A DNA stretch of 64,000 nt from the NCBI GenBank assembly GCA_013287335.1, contig JABDDZ010000001.1, positions 3,045-67,044 on the forward strand, in the 5' to 3' direction. The notes below the pieces were generated by a model. That model did no database searches and had not been told where the DNA came from. It saw nothing but the letters and a program-made list of their open reading frames with translations. Shown here one piece after another: positions 33,591 through 40,785 of this stretch. This DNA comes from Chlamydiota bacterium (GTDB lineage Bacteria; Chlamydiota; Chlamydiia; Chlamydiales; JAAKFR01). A program made the translations under genes and the position numbers. Each line of letters starts with the position of its first letter. Positions within the stretch are counted from its first letter, which is position 1.

Positions 33591-34394
33591 ATGAAAACCA
33601 TTGTCATGAAATTCGGTGGAAAGGCAGTTGAGAAGACTGAACGGTTCCCGCTGATTGCCGATCTTATTTTAAAAAGAAAAAAAGAATTTGGCAGAGTAGT
33701 AGTTGTTATTAGCGCCATGGGGAATCTCACAGATCAGCTCATCAAGCTTGCCTATTCCATCTGCGATGAGCCTCCCAAACGAGAATATGATATGCTTGTG
33801 AGCGTAGGGGAGCGGATCAGCATCGCTCTTCTTGCTATGGCTCTGCATACAAAGGGATGTGAAGCTGTAAGCTTTACCGGAAGCCAGTCGGGCATTATCA
33901 CAACGAACGACCATACCGATGCCCGCATTATCGATGTACGTCCCGATCGTCTTTTGCCGCCATTACAGGAGGGGAAAATTGTCATTGTAGCAGGTTTCCA
34001 GGGAGTGAGCAGCACAAAAGAGATCACTACTCTCGGAAGAGGTGGCTCTGATACAACGGCCGTGGCAGTAGCTTCTGCATTAAACGCAAAGAGAGTGGAA
34101 TTTTACAAAGATGTCCCAGGCATTTTTGAGGAGGATCCTCAAAAATCCCTTTGTCAAGAGCACTTTCATAAATTGAATTTTGAAGAGGCCCTTGCGATAG
34201 TAGAAAAAACGGGGGGAAGAGTTCTGGCTCCAAGAGCCATTCTCTTAGCTAAGAAAAACCAGATGCCCCTTGTTGTTCGCTCTTTTTGTGAAGAGTTTCA
34301 AGATTCTTTGGGGACATGCATTAGCGAAGAGAGCCCTAAACCCAAAAAACCCGGATATGAAAGTGAGGGGGCCATTGCATCTCAAAATAACTAG
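33591..34394 (+). CDS. lysC: Aspartokinase catalytic domain only (no ACT domains)
   Basis: MKFGGKAV, VVVVISAMGNLTD, and TTLGRGGSDTTAVAVASALNAKRVEFYKDVPGIFEEDP. The protein stops after 267 aa. Confidence 0.75.
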   Translation: MKTIVMKFGGKAVEKTERFPLIADLILKRKKEFGRVVVVISAMGNLTDQLIKLAYSICDEPPKREYDMLVSVGERISIALLAMALHTKGCEAVSFTGSQSGIITTNDHTDARIIDVRPDRLLPPLQEGKIVIVAGFQGVSSTKEITTLGRGGSDTTAVAVASALNAKRVEFYKDVPGIFEEDPQKSLCQEHFHKLNFEEALAIVEKTGGRVLAPRAILLAKKNQMPLVVRSFCEEFQDSLGTCISEESPKPKKPGYESEGAIASQNN

Positions 34395-36291
34395 TCCTGT
34401 AGCAGAGGAGGAGAGTCTCTATCTGTTAGCTTTAAAAAAATCGTTAAATACAATCTTACCGCCTGGTTTTTTTCCAAAGGAGCTCGATAAAAATCCTCAT
34501 CTTAGAGCCCAAGCGGTTGAAAGGTGGCATCAGCTTTTACCCCTTATCGAATGGACCCCTTTAAAAAAACCTCCCTTTTATCTCTCTTTTTTTCTCTGCT
34601 GCCCATTTCGTCAGAATGCCTTTCGCTTCTTTCAGGAGATGATCTGCCGTTGGCTTATTCCAGGTACAGGAATCGATGCTTTCTTGCAGTTTGCCATCAA
34701 TTTTTATATTCCAGATCTTTGCAACACGCAATATCTGGCTGGGCAAGTTGTTGTGAATATCGAAACCTTAAAAGAGCTAGAACTGGTAGAGAAAAACCTT
34801 CCTATTTTAGAGACAGAAATCCGTCTTGGAATGCAATCTGCCTACCAGGCTAACCGAATATTAGAGATTAAAGGACTCTCTTCCGATGAAAAAACGGGGA
34901 TGATTCAGGAAAATATTGCAATGCTTGTCAAGCATCGCCCCCAGGATTTTGACTATGATCTCTTCTCAGAAATGCAACATCTTTTAGTCTTCTGCAAAGA
35001 GGAGTTTAAACATCCTAGATCCTATAAACATATGAGCCGCCTCATCTGTTTTTTTTATCTCTTTAGAAAAGCCCTTATGCACTCTTCAGAGGCTTTTCCC
35101 GAGAGGCGCTTTGTGAGTGTCAAGCTTATTCGAGTGACCCTTTTGCAACACAATGTAAAGAGACGCGTTTTGGGGGTTGTGATAGGACTCAGCTTTTTAA
35201 GAGAAAATGAGATCTTCACCCAACGGCATATCTTGAAAGCTATAAAAAGCTATATTCCTAATACAAGGGTAATTAAGGGTTCCTTCTTTAAGAATGCATC
35301 ACGCCACAATCCGACCTGTTTGGCTTATTTGGAGGTAGAGAAAGAGGATGAATCTCCCTTTACCATCGATGAGACAAGCGGTTTAAAAGAGGAGCTGCCC
35401 CATGCTATTGGCGAGTGCATAGAAAAGAGTTATAACCTTATTTTTATGCCCCAAAATGAAGAGGAGGTTTTTCGAGGAATCCTGGCTTTATCAAACCAGC
35501 TTACATATATGAGAGATCTGCCTCAAGCCATGATCTCCTTTGAAAAACAGACCGAAAGCCATCTGGAATTTTTAGTGATTGTTGTGCGCATTGTGAAACC
35601 TGCTTCTATACCCATCCAGGACCTTTTTGAGACAAGGCCTACATTTTTACATTTCATTCCCGATCGTATTAAAGTTGTGGGACTTCTTCGCAAAAAATAT
35701 CGTAAAGAGGCGAATGTATTCAGGCTGCAAGCTAAAAAGGATCACTATTTAAGGCATGACCATTCCGTCGACCTATATAAAGCACGCAGCGAGGTCGCTG
35801 AGGAGCTTGCTCGCATTGTTGGCGAGTTTAGAGACTTTAATGGGGGAACAATTTCTAAAGAGAATGAGCTCTTTGCAAATCTTCGCAAGCTCGTTGGAAA
35901 AAAAGGGCAGGAGCATGCTTTTTTGTTAGAAAATTTCTTTTATTCGCTGGGCCCCGCTGTGATGCGGAGCGTCCTTAAACCTGTGCCGCTTAAAAAACTT
36001 TTTTTTATGCTCCTTGAAGCAGCGCATTTTGAGGGGAAAGAGAGGGAGGCGATAGAGATGCGTACTTTGGAAGATAGAGAGTTTTCTTATATGGTACTTC
36101 TTTCTAAAGAACCCTATTTTCGCACGGAAGTTTTGAGTGCAATTGAGCGGACTATAACAGATGGGAGCCAGGTTGCAACTTGCTTTGTAACTCATAATGG
36201 CCTATTCTGTATGGGAATTTTAGATAGAATTATAGCTCATGAGAGTGCATTAAAATTGCGCTTTGCAATTGAGAGTGTGCTCACAAACTGA
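34357..36291 (+). CDS. Hypothetical protein; stand-alone copy of a ~650-670-aa domain also found at the N-terminus of 36848..40402
   Basis: Collinear similarity to the next large ORF, e.g. QAMISFEKQTESHLEFLV vs QMMLFFEKQTDTALIFTL, VGEFRDFNGGTISKENELF vs FGEMRDYDGGLILKQQELF, and LLENFFYSLGP vs LLENFFYSITP. The start is uncertain (34270 in the track; ATG 34357 minimises overlap with lysC). Confidence 0.7.
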   Translation: MKVRGPLHLKITSPVAEEESLYLLALKKSLNTILPPGFFPKELDKNPHLRAQAVERWHQLLPLIEWTPLKKPPFYLSFFLCCPFRQNAFRFFQEMICRWLIPGTGIDAFLQFAINFYIPDLCNTQYLAGQVVVNIETLKELELVEKNLPILETEIRLGMQSAYQANRILEIKGLSSDEKTGMIQENIAMLVKHRPQDFDYDLFSEMQHLLVFCKEEFKHPRSYKHMSRLICFFYLFRKALMHSSEAFPERRFVSVKLIRVTLLQHNVKRRVLGVVIGLSFLRENEIFTQRHILKAIKSYIPNTRVIKGSFFKNASRHNPTCLAYLEVEKEDESPFTIDETSGLKEELPHAIGECIEKSYNLIFMPQNEEEVFRGILALSNQLTYMRDLPQAMISFEKQTESHLEFLVIVVRIVKPASIPIQDLFETRPTFLHFIPDRIKVVGLLRKKYRKEANVFRLQAKKDHYLRHDHSVDLYKARSEVAEELARIVGEFRDFNGGTISKENELFANLRKLVGKKGQEHAFLLENFFYSLGPAVMRSVLKPVPLKKLFFMLLEAAHFEGKEREAIEMRTLEDREFSYMVLLSKEPYFRTEVLSAIERTITDGSQVATCFVTHNGLFCMGILDRIIAHESALKLRFAIESVLTN

Positions 36292-36339
36292 ACAAGCAGC
36301 TATGGTCGATTCAGCTGAAAAGGCTATACAAGGTGCAGG

Positions 36340-40402: not shown

Positions 40403-40404
40403 TA

Positions 40405-40785
40405 ATGTCTACTCAATCTAATCAAATAGTTGATGATTCAATGCAAAACGCTGACTGTTTCGTTTCAAGAAATCCTGTTGAAAGGACCTTGGAAAAAATA
40501 TTAGGTCAGAGCTGGTATGGTCTAATGGAGTCAGCGGAAGCGGAAGAACTATTACAGGGCCAAAAAAATGGAACCTATTTATTTCGCATCGATGAAATCG
40601 GAGATATTTTTCTTTCCGGAGTGAATAACGTTAACACCGTTCAACACGCAAAAATTGAAAATAGACGTAGTATCTGGTGGGCGTTCAATGGAAATGATTA
40701 TAAATCAAATGTTTTGCATGAGTTGATTCCATTAAGCCTTCATTGTGAGAAAGGAGAGTGCTCTCCCCTTATTAAAGGAAGATAA
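40405..40785 (+). CDS. Small protein with an SH2-like domain
   Basis: SWYGLMESAEAEELLQGQKNGTYLFRIDE..IFLSGV...VQHAKIE...YKSNVLHELI follows the SH2 pattern W[YF]xG...AExLL....GxFLxR.. then beta strands then alpha-B. GGAG RBS 7 nt upstream. The start lies 2 nt after the preceding stop. Confidence 0.55.
   Translation: MSTQSNQIVDDSMQNADCFVSRNPVERTLEKILGQSWYGLMESAEAEELLQGQKNGTYLFRIDEIGDIFLSGVNNVNTVQHAKIENRRSIWWAFNGNDYKSNVLHELIPLSLHCEKGECSPLIKGR

Follow-up and report, generated by a model that had tools for sequence, protein, structure and literature searches.

A chlamydial protein family with predicted ACT-like units, encoded beside or fused to sensor-less aspartokinases and OppA-type proteins

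Ordinary aspartokinases (AKs) carry ACT domains, which mediate dimerisation and feedback inhibition. Corynebacterium has an α2β2 aspartokinase whose regulatory part is additionally produced as a polypeptide of its own, and fusions of aspartokinase to other enzymes of the pathway, for example homoserine dehydrogenase, are common. Chlamydiae obtain amino acids and peptides from their host and depend on this supply, but they still synthesize diaminopimelate, which goes into a transient ring of peptidoglycan, and their balance of synthesis versus import is poorly understood. Three described systems are relevant to the locus considered here. The chlamydial Opp system is a reported importer of peptidoglycan-derived mDAP peptides (PMC9928106). 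The large (180-kDa) mycobacterial glutamate dehydrogenase (GDH) has an N-terminal segment with three ACT* units (ACT*1-3) of permuted ββαββα topology plus helical motifs; this segment is a proposed metabolic sensor, its ACT*2/3 units mediate subunit contacts, and in PDB entry 7jsr the N-terminal part was built ab initio into 6.3 Å data (PMC8175468). Finally, the SH2 domains hitherto reported from bacteria occur in Legionella effectors (Kaneko et al. 2018, PMC6208348).

Here we analyze a 64,000-nucleotide stretch of a Chlamydiota genome (the window), in which an earlier note, made from the sequence alone, had described four open reading frames as one operon-like block. All four were recovered with the ends assigned to them, and all lie on the forward strand: X1 (34357..36291, 644 aa), an Inc-like small membrane protein (36340..36684, 114 aa), the X2-OppA fusion (36848..40402, 1184 aa) and, after a gap of 2 nt, an SH2-like protein (40405..40785, 126 aa). 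The fusion consists of an X module, X2 (36848..38863, residues 1 to ~672), joined directly to an OppA-like, family-5 solute-binding domain (38864..40402). On the same strand, an AK gene (33591..34394, 267 aa) overlaps the start of X1 with its final 38 nt, and a MATE-family transporter gene (40806..42179) follows the SH2-like gene. A TTG at 34270 could extend X1, but the family alignment favors the ATG. Rather than a single block, these genes form two units, namely an AK/X1 pair, the kinase half of which the earlier note had left out, and a separately conserved X2-OppA/SH2-like/MatE module, which is inserted between X1 and the DUF721-gyrB genes. Further downstream, the sole ABC importer seen among the window ORFs scanned is MetN/MetI-like (50636-52338).

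X1 and X2 belong to an undescribed protein family, here called X, whose members are almost always found beside or fused with a sensor-less aspartokinase or an OppA-type protein. The two are clearly paralogous, as first noticed from the sequence: BLASTP aligns them with 31% identity over 521 aa (E 2e-70), and they have the motifs RNEE.VM, FEKQT, GE.RD.(N/D)GG and LLENFFYS in common. The domain had not been recognized, and by sequence this still holds, as X1 has no match in Pfam, NCBIfam, PADLOC or the PDB sequences, none of 33 family members matches Pfam at E ≤ 1, and no well-characterized family emerges from the Pfam, NCBIfam and PDB-sequence searches. A word-indexed search returned 315 relatives of X1 and a profile search 983 cluster representatives; nearly all of the relatives found come from records that bear the label Chlamydiae, Chlamydiales or a related name. 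Identity across the family is 40-72% in the X-only portion. The invariant columns of the family alignment (A1) define a signature composed of the loop F-M-P-x-N-E-E-E-V (35431..35463, X1 residues ~359-369; near-invariant), GEFRD(Y/F)NGG (X1 residues 489-497) and LLENFFYS (~523-530), all of which are kept in X2 and in the shortest AK-X fusions described below. Many other D, E, K, R and H residues are also invariant. Within the signature loop, X1 residues 359-366 have pLDDT values below 50 and are predicted to be disordered.

The AlphaFold2 (AF2) model of X1 has a mean pLDDT of 87.3, and DSSP identifies four ββαββα units in it, at about residues 63-160, 253-358, 390-488 and 566-643. The predicted layout comprises ACT*-like unit A (residues ~63-160), helical module 1 (162-246), unit B (253-358), unit C (~366-488), helical module 2 (497-557) and unit D (566-643), in accord with the ACT/ferredoxin-like β-α repeats that the earlier note had ventured by eye. 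When the model was compared with the PDB using Foldseek, the only matches below 1e-3 were to large GDH, in the ACT*-containing segment of 7jsr (chains A and B; E 2.4e-7, probability 1.0, 700 columns). The TM-score is low (0.15), because the relative arrangement of the domains differs. In both proteins, ββαββα ACT-like units recur over ~650-700 residues with helical modules in between, an amino-acid-metabolizing catalytic domain is attached in each case, and the GDH segment is a proposed metabolic sensor and oligomerization device. The GDH segment combines ACT*1-3 with PAS and helical motifs; X, by contrast, contains four ACT-like units but no recognized PAS domain, shows no detectable sequence similarity to large GDH (no Pfam GDH or ACT match), and has as partners aspartokinase (mostly in trans) and OppA-type domains rather than GDH. 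No profile match was obtained between X and the ACT families (Pfam ACT, ACT_4/7/9 and GDH_ACT); hhalign gave a probability of 0.1% for X against 57 canonical AK C-terminal (ACT) regions, and at most 1.5% for single X units against ACT and against each other, with no internal repeat at the sequence level. As X has no sequence similarity to canonical ACT domains, the label "ACT-like" derives solely from the predicted structure, which fits a protein built from such units in the permuted ACT* topology.

The strongest functional clue is the pairing of X1 with AK. Of the 80 GTDB species loci, 75 have AK immediately upstream of X1 in the same orientation, the tblastn matches of the two being separated by a median of 122 nt, and in the other 5 no AK adjoins X1; counted over all 171 loci, AK is directly upstream of X in 109. 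The genes on either side of the pair vary by lineage, being tgt/vut1...gyrB in the window and rpsA/mgtC...brnQ in an isolate genome (L052). The kinase itself consists of the AA_kinase domain only (Pfam, residues 2-231) and has no ACT domains; its match to the NCBIfam aspartate kinase models, which are 400-590 aa long, ends at about residue 250 of the models, and the AK of the isolate genome is likewise AA_kinase only (257 aa). Natural AA_kinase-X fusions make up at least eight protein clusters, 36-87% identical to the query fusion and in one case present in two samples, and in three further clusters the C-terminal part of X comes straight after AK. Three types of junction are seen, in which AK is joined to nearly full X, to X without unit A, or to the C-terminal half only. 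The shortest fusions, of 553-568 aa, are of the last type, and the part of X that they retain corresponds to two ACT-like units in the X1 model. In a neighbor-joining (NJ) tree, the AK fusions are scattered inside the X1 clade. Modelled with AF2, a natural AK-X fusion (pLDDT 86.6, pTM 0.39) shows no confident docking or inter-domain packing of AK and X, and its Foldseek alignments to full-length AKs are accounted for by the catalytic domain and do not place an X unit at the ACT position.

X1 resembles the ACT domains and β subunit of Corynebacterium LysC (PDB 3aaw/3ab2) in accompanying a catalytic amino-acid-kinase domain, and it sits exactly where the ACT domains absent from the chlamydial AK would be. 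It differs from them in size, X being four times as large, and in its helical modules; moreover, it has a gene to itself and is not produced from an internal start, and hhalign does not relate it to the canonical ACT region, as described above. X is probably cytoplasmic, because none of the branches examined contains a signal peptide or TM segment and because X is fused to an ATP-dependent kinase. We propose that X is a soluble module of ~640 residues that would serve as a ligand-sensing and/or oligomerizing regulatory partner of other proteins, and that X1 would regulate the AK encoded just upstream, an enzyme that has lost its ACT domains, as a partner that is detached from it and in some cases fused to it again.

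The conserved polar motifs NEEE and RD.NGG could equally mark a catalytic site, in which case X might be an enzyme, acting for example on aspartyl-phosphate or on an OppA-delivered peptide or amino acid, and its linkage and fusion to AK would reflect a shared pathway. Indeed, F-M-P-x-N-E-E-E and GEFRD(Y/F)NGG are strongly conserved, polar and partly located in loops, they are accompanied by the many other invariant charged residues and histidines, the identity within X is high for a purely regulatory domain, and bifunctional aspartokinases fused to other enzymes are among the weaker NCBIfam matches of the AK search. We nevertheless consider an enzymatic function unlikely, since neither sequence nor structure searches revealed a known catalytic fold or family, the sole significant structural match is to a non-catalytic regulatory segment, and X has two unrelated types of partner and an N-terminal half that is dispensable in some fusions.

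The second type of partner is represented by the X2-OppA fusion. Although X1 and X2 had been described as duplicated, X2 is not a recent duplicate but a member of an old OppA-associated branch of the family, separate from X1, which falls in the AK-linked branch. In NJ trees, it groups with other X-OppA fusions, which we found at 17 further loci, and the OppA-linked branch also includes ~700-aa X paralogs (X-700) encoded immediately downstream of an OppA gene at 22 loci. Bootstrap support is 98% for the 700-aa group and 74% when the fusions are included; the fusions by themselves reach 66%. There is a 4-nt overlap between the OppA gene and that of X-700. As the OppAs upstream of X-700 carry lipoprotein signals, the two products would occupy different compartments, which is awkward for a model in which they form a direct complex.

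The C-terminal part of the fusion contains a complete SBP_bac_5 domain, as had been recognized from the sequence (Pfam 221 bits, residues 726-1096). It scores 189-323 bits against solved OppAs, with 323 bits for Bacillus subtilis OppA (8are), to which it aligns from mature residue 12, and it has the full-length fold of the cluster-C proteins OppA, DppA and MppA (8are, Salmonella 1b05, and Chlamydia trachomatis OppA3 9pv8). In contrast to these proteins, it is fused behind a ~670-aa cytoplasmic-type module, has neither signal peptide nor lipobox, and has no opp permease or ATPase genes nearby. The protein starts MMYENSRNILLYPSPK, and an in-frame stop 9 codons upstream of the ATG leaves no room for an earlier start that would add a signal peptide. 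A hydropathy scan found no signal peptide or hydrophobic segment at the N-terminus, the threshold of 1.6 being reached only inside the protein (residues 226-244), and no oppBCDF genes were found among the window ORFs scanned. Another fusion locus (L082) has an oppBCDF operon 5 kb away, with its own OppA, and neighboring standalone OppAs in other loci have lipoboxes. The binding pocket has changed as well. Asp419 of Salmonella OppA is the acidic residue that binds the free α-amino group of the peptide, and alignment of GWYPSIDDP in the fusion to the Salmonella sequence GWCADYNEP (WCADYNEP, 416-423) places a Ser at this position. According to a motif census across loci, this position is occupied by Trp in the other fusions examined and mostly by Gln in the X-700-linked OppAs, and the Asp is kept only in the OppA next to oppBCDF in L082. 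Because the signal peptide, nearby permease genes and the Asp that anchors the peptide N-terminus are all missing, the OppA domain looks repurposed, as the earlier note had supposed on the first two grounds.

The SH2-like assignment of the gene that follows also holds, with 26.7 bits against Pfam SH2 (gathering score 21) and an E value of 0.002 against the SH2 domain of Grb2. YLFR and VQHAKI align to FLIR and VQHFKV of Grb2, so the FLVR arginine and the β-D histidine are kept. A 43% identical homolog follows the fusion in L082, and altogether we found 12 distinct SH2-like ORFs besides that of the window, all in fusion loci; the Pfam SH2 scores of further members are 24.7, 21.7, 19.3 and 19.2 bits. 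All members have a C-terminal LIPxxxHC...C.PL motif in common, but the FLVR arginine is replaced by Ser or Gly in 6 of the 12, for which reason phosphotyrosine binding may not be general among them. The MATE gene scores 65 bits against Pfam MatE and 109 bits, below the cutoff, against TIGR00797. A MatE gene is nearby in 10 fusion loci; in L082, L083, L094, L096, L103, L105, L107, L114 and L152, its distance from the fusion is at most 3.5 kb. The SH2-like and MATE genes are tightly coupled, with gaps of 7-20 nt. X-OppA, SH2-like and MatE therefore constitute a conserved module in the subgroup to which the window belongs. The Inc-like gene is lineage-specific and stands outside this module, contrary to its earlier placement in the block, because a 42% identical relative lies between X1 and DUF721 in a locus without a fusion (L002). 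The description of its product is borne out by two adjacent hydrophobic segments (residues 36-69 and 73-96), corresponding to the bilobed hydrophobic domain of two closely spaced segments that is characteristic of chlamydial Inc proteins; in Pfam it has only sub-threshold holin and claudin-like matches.

The SH2-like protein resembles the Legionella SH2 effectors in matching the SH2 profile and keeping the FLVR arginine, which raises the possibility that it and X2-OppA are type-III-secreted, host-directed proteins, the former binding host phosphotyrosine and the latter a host ligand. Neither has a Sec signal, as expected for chlamydial effectors, Inc-like genes are nearby, and genes for F-box, ankyrin and LRR proteins flank the module in L082 and L083. 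Unlike the Legionella effectors, however, the SH2-like protein is a single domain of ~120 aa from a chlamydia-type genome, its gene is linked to those of a MATE transporter and the X-OppA fusion, and half of its distinct homologs have lost the arginine while retaining a motif of their own. The tight coupling to the MATE gene suggests a role inside the bacterium, the main partner of X is a cytoplasmic ATP-dependent kinase, sometimes in the same polypeptide, and a folded multi-domain protein of 1184 aa is a possible but not typical type III cargo. We therefore regard secretion as improbable. Of the non-transport roles envisaged in the earlier note, that of a simple effector is weakened, because the SH2-like gene is conserved alongside both the fusion and the MATE gene, while a non-transport role as such agrees with the repurposed appearance of the OppA domain.

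Taken as a whole, the reading that makes X an ACT-like module of the cytoplasm with a regulatory or scaffold role, X1 the detached regulatory partner of AK, and X2-OppA a non-transport ligand receptor has, in our estimation, about an even chance of being correct. X2 would then represent an old sister branch dedicated to OppA-type binding proteins. As its OppA domain lacks a signal and its pocket lacks the Asp that clamps the N-terminus, X2-OppA would most likely take no part in transport but serve in the cytoplasm as the receptor of a non-canonical ligand, and might act with the co-conserved SH2-like protein and MATE transporter. That X is instead a passive oligomerization scaffold or chaperone without ligand sensing, replacing the dimerizing role of the lost ACT domains of AK and holding OppA-type proteins or their precursors together, is in keeping with the subunit contacts made by ACT*2/3 in large GDH and with the stoichiometric co-production suggested by the OppA/X-700 gene overlap, despite the lipoprotein signal of those OppAs, but it is hard to separate from a regulatory module short of experiments and seems more doubtful still, as it leaves unexplained both the invariant polar loop motifs and the coordinated change at the ligand-anchoring position of the X-associated OppAs.

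Going further, it is conceivable, if rather improbable, that X is an unrecognized sensor module, widespread among chlamydia-type bacteria, tying aspartokinase-dependent synthesis to OppA-dependent uptake or salvage, and that X2-OppA, the SH2-like protein and MATE form a receptor-adaptor-exporter system. If so, X would link both supply routes of aspartate-family and diaminopimelate building blocks, and the second module would be a new cytoplasmic system with an SH2-fold protein working inside a bacterium. The fusion provides a clear example of a family-5 solute-binding domain without export or permease, and the locus adds a bacterial SH2-like family outside Legionella, linked to a MATE transporter. 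The families described here have no Pfam or NCBIfam model, and annotation pipelines are accordingly silent on them. For the hypothetical proteins of hundreds of chlamydial species genomes, there is now a testable hypothesis, namely that they may be the missing regulatory half of AK, and, given its linkage, X may be a new type of module that regulates the metabolism of amino acids and peptides in intracellular chlamydiae.

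The block downstream of the catalytic-domain-only aspartokinase gene (AK) contains the four ORFs reported in the earlier note exactly as given there, and its two largest products are indeed paralogous: X1 (34357–36291; 644 aa) and the first ~670 residues (X2) of the protein encoded at 36848–40402 align across 521 residues, 31% of them identical (E 2e-70). In the latter protein, the last ~510 residues form the complete family-5 solute-binding domain that the earlier note had recognized (Pfam SBP_bac_5, 221 bits) and align with Bacillus subtilis OppA (323 bits) from mature residue 12, so that the X part stands in for the signal peptide and lipobox. 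An in-frame stop nine codons 5' of the ATG and an N-terminus devoid of hydrophobic segments bear out the proposed lack of a signal peptide in this fusion (X2-OppA), and none of the window ORFs that were scanned proved to be an opp permease gene. The smaller products also agree with their initial descriptions: the Inc-like 114-aa ORF has two hydrophobic segments side by side, and the SH2-like 126-aa ORF (40405–40785) scores 26.7 bits against a Pfam SH2 threshold of 21 and retains the FLVR arginine. A promoter and terminator scan returned counts equal to the shuffled expectation and is uninformative on operon structure. Elsewhere in the window, five consecutive reverse-strand ORFs without a Pfam match (25900–31520), each with a hydrophobic segment at around residues 55–90, look like an expanding cluster of Inc-like membrane proteins; the 473-aa member (29107–30528) is an internal duplication of the unit found in its 259-aa neighbor (~38% identity, two matches). 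The same strand carries a 1813-aa ORF that matches no Pfam family at E ≤ 1e-4 (3749–9190) and a type III polyketide synthase (chalcone/stilbene synthase-like, 373 aa) adjoining a SAM methyltransferase (9247–11752), a pair unexpected for a chlamydial genome.

The N-terminal domain might have belonged to a well-characterized family, but none was found in Pfam, NCBIfam, PADLOC, or the PDB sequences, where X1 and X2 matched only SBP_bac_5 and the X family gave no match even when 33 members were scanned singly at E ≤ 1. With no PADLOC match, a role in anti-phage defence was rejected. A word-indexed search found 315 X relatives, species-representative genomes contain relatives in at least 553 stretches, and a profile search across 1.84 billion clusters gave 983 representatives. 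Among the matches listed, the closest relatives of the window are MAGs labelled Chlamydiia or Chlamydiales, its source being an uncultured chlamydial lineage, and every record title or source name is Chlamydiae, Chlamydiales, Parachlamydiales, Waddliaceae, Rhabdochlamydia, or a 'Verrucomicrobia' MAG. The proteins are mostly without a name, and a literature search found no paper on the X family or on ACT-less chlamydial aspartokinases.

An AlphaFold model of X, based on an alignment of 33 sequences, is locally confident (pLDDT 87.3) and flexible between domains (pTM 0.42). In a Foldseek search of the PDB, only two matches fell below 1e-3, both of them chains of 7jsr (E 2.4e-7, probability 1.0, 700 aligned columns, with low TM-scores), the 180-kDa glutamate dehydrogenase of Mycobacterium smegmatis (PMC8175468). 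The N-terminal 700 residues of this enzyme, modelled ab initio at low resolution, comprise three ACT-like (ACT*) domains, a PAS domain, and helical motifs, which have been proposed to serve as metabolic sensors and to make subunit contacts as well (PMC8175468). By its predicted fold, X most resembles this N-terminal segment, the predicted units of X having exactly the permuted topology of the large-enzyme ACT* domains, and the predicted structure thus agrees with the ACT/ferredoxin-like flavor that the earlier note had offered as speculation. Using hhalign, no signal was obtained between the X family and canonical aspartokinase ACT regions, or among the four X units, and we therefore do not claim that X and ACT domains are homologous. 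Since X also fails the sequence-membership tests of the ACT families, it is best filed as a variant akin to ACT-type regulators rather than as a family member. The window does encode a textbook example of importer regulation by an ACT-type domain, namely a MetN-like ABC ATPase that ends in a NIL (ACT-like) domain, together with a permease (50636–52338); this NIL domain is not related to X in sequence.

The gene context of X1 points to a likely partner. AK (33591–34394; 267 aa) lies directly upstream with a 38-nt overlap and has only the catalytic amino-acid-kinase domain, its matches stopping at approximately residue 250 of aspartokinase models that are 400–590 residues long. Of the 80 species loci that the X profile recovered, 75 have a short AK gene directly upstream of X on the same strand, with a median gap of 122 nt that leaves no space for ACT domains; the arrangement is present in 109 of 171 loci overall. 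The two genes stay paired although their flanks differ between lineages, being tgt–vut1 and gyrB in the lineage of the window, and rpsA–mgtC and brnQ in a Parachlamydiaceae isolate (AK of 257 aa). Furthermore, AK and X occur as natural single-polypeptide fusions in at least eight protein clusters (sharing 36–87% identity with the query fusion), of which one was found in two samples, and three more clusters have AK joined straight to the C-terminal part of X. The junctions are of three kinds, with AK joined to near-complete X, to X without unit A, or to the C-terminal half alone, which in X1 corresponds to unit C, helical module 2, and unit D; with two predicted ACT-like units, this last kind matches the ordinary aspartokinase layout of a kinase and a compact regulatory region. 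The shortened forms, lacking the first unit (P0283, P0288, and P0290; 747–755 aa) or retaining only the C-terminal half (P0296, P0297, and P0298; 553–568 aa), delimit a minimal conserved core with the motifs NEEE, RD.NGG, and LLENFFYS. In a neighbor-joining tree, the fusions are dispersed inside the X1 clade.

Given the conserved adjacency, the independent fusions, and a kinase without the type of domain that X resembles, the best-supported role for X1 is that of a regulatory or oligomerizing partner of the aspartokinase. An AF2 model of a natural fusion has no confident interface (pTM 0.39), so that the key step, physical and allosteric coupling, is one that we infer. Among the NCBIfam aspartate kinase models, PRK05925 is that of the Chlamydia-type lysC. 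The window AK gives it only a weak match, 72 bits where the cutoff is 665, which suggests a different aspartokinase lineage in the Chlamydiaceae. An enzymatic role for X itself appears unlikely.

Two further branches of the family are linked to OppA. In one, X-700, with proteins of ~700 aa and a divergent N-terminus, the X gene lies immediately 3' of an OppA gene in 22 loci (with a 4-nt overlap in locus L088), and these OppAs bear lipoprotein signals. That the partners are exported lipoproteins argues against a direct-complex model for this branch. One apparently signal-less OppA upstream of X-700 (locus L087, 5186–5560) was rejected as such: the public call starts too late, and beginning instead at an in-frame ATG farther upstream adds the lipoprotein signal MNTKLLFTLLLSISFFSC. 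Signal-less SBP calls in such data require checking. In the other branch, to which X2 belongs, X and OppA share a single continuous frame, as in 17 further loci beyond the window. A second, standalone OppA often lies 3' of the fusion (L084, L091, L092, and L169), and one metagenomic contig (L169, 50–7741) carries two tandem fusion genes with a standalone OppA between them. Neighbor-joining bootstrap support is 98% for X-700, 74% for X-700 with the fusions, and 66% for the fusions alone. By this phylogeny X2 is an old paralog whose place beside X1 in the window is incidental, and a recent tandem duplication was rejected on the strength of the trees, contrary to the local duplication implied by the earlier note.

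The binding pocket is altered as well. Asp419 of Salmonella OppA, which holds the free amino terminus of the ligand, aligns with Asp in B. subtilis OppA and DppE and in Borrelia OppAIV, and with Glu in C. trachomatis OppA3. The aligned residue is Ser in the window fusion, Trp in the other fusions examined, and Gln in most X-700-linked OppAs; just one OppA of the set, in locus L082 beside a genuine oppBCDF operon, keeps the Asp. Because of this replacement, the X-associated SBP5 domains are probably a specialized group with a ligand other than an ordinary free peptide. Of the four OppA-defining features tested, X2-OppA lacks three (export signal, permease linkage, and anchoring Asp), and functionally it is not an OppA.

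Close relatives of the window run from X1 directly into DUF721–gyrB, with a small Inc-like gene between in L002, and the 5.3-kb X2-OppA/SH2-like/MatE module is therefore an insertion in the lineage of the window; no direct repeats were found flanking it. The 370-nt MatE/DUF721 gap at its right edge contains nested inverted repeats (42193–42415), with inner arms of 31 nt (42256–42286/42332–42362; 90% complementary) and outer arms of 17 nt (42193–42209/42399–42415; 94% complementary), which may act as a terminator or regulatory hairpin or may be the scar of an insertion. Within the subgroup to which the window belongs, two other genes accompany the fusion. In L082, an SH2-like gene (43% identical to that of the window) and a MATE gene lie 3' of the fusion, in L083 and L103 an SH2-like–MatE pair is convergent to it, and ten loci have MatE no more than 3.5 kb from the fusion. 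Transposase fragments (Tn3-type, DDE_Tnp_1; L082, 8671–10300, and L083, 15101–15604) and F-box, ankyrin, and LRR genes near the module in L082 and L083, which represent two other lineages, hint at variable, possibly mobile, effector-rich regions.

Scanning the loci already recovered with an HMM built from five sequences yielded 12 distinct SH2-like ORFs besides that of the window, all in fusion loci and none in AK–X1 or OppA–X-700 loci, whereas scanning metagenomes with the SH2-like pair gave no match. This ~120-aa family of chlamydial metagenomes (L082, 6550–6897; L083, 9873–10313 and 11048–11407; L103, 9488–9865; others in L094, L096, L105, L107, L114, and L152) always lies beside X-OppA fusions, usually directly upstream of a MATE gene. 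Five members match Pfam SH2 singly (19–27 bits), the FLVR arginine is replaced in 6 of the 12, and all share the C-terminal motif LIPxxxHC...C.PL, whose Cys and His might bind metal. It is improbable that X2-OppA and the SH2-like protein are secreted as host-directed effectors, since the X fold has a cytoplasmic kinase as its chief partner, the SH2-like gene is closely coupled to a transporter gene, and the FLVR arginine is often lost.

A purely structural or chaperone function for X is likewise improbable. The most likely reading, to which we give about an even chance, makes X an ACT-like sensor and scaffold of the cytoplasm, with X1 regulating the ACT-less aspartokinase and X2-OppA acting alongside the SH2-like protein and the MATE pump as a receptor without a transport role; the receptor half is much less secure than the aspartokinase half. 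On this reading, X would work in the manner of the regulatory regions of ACT type that amino-acid enzymes carry.
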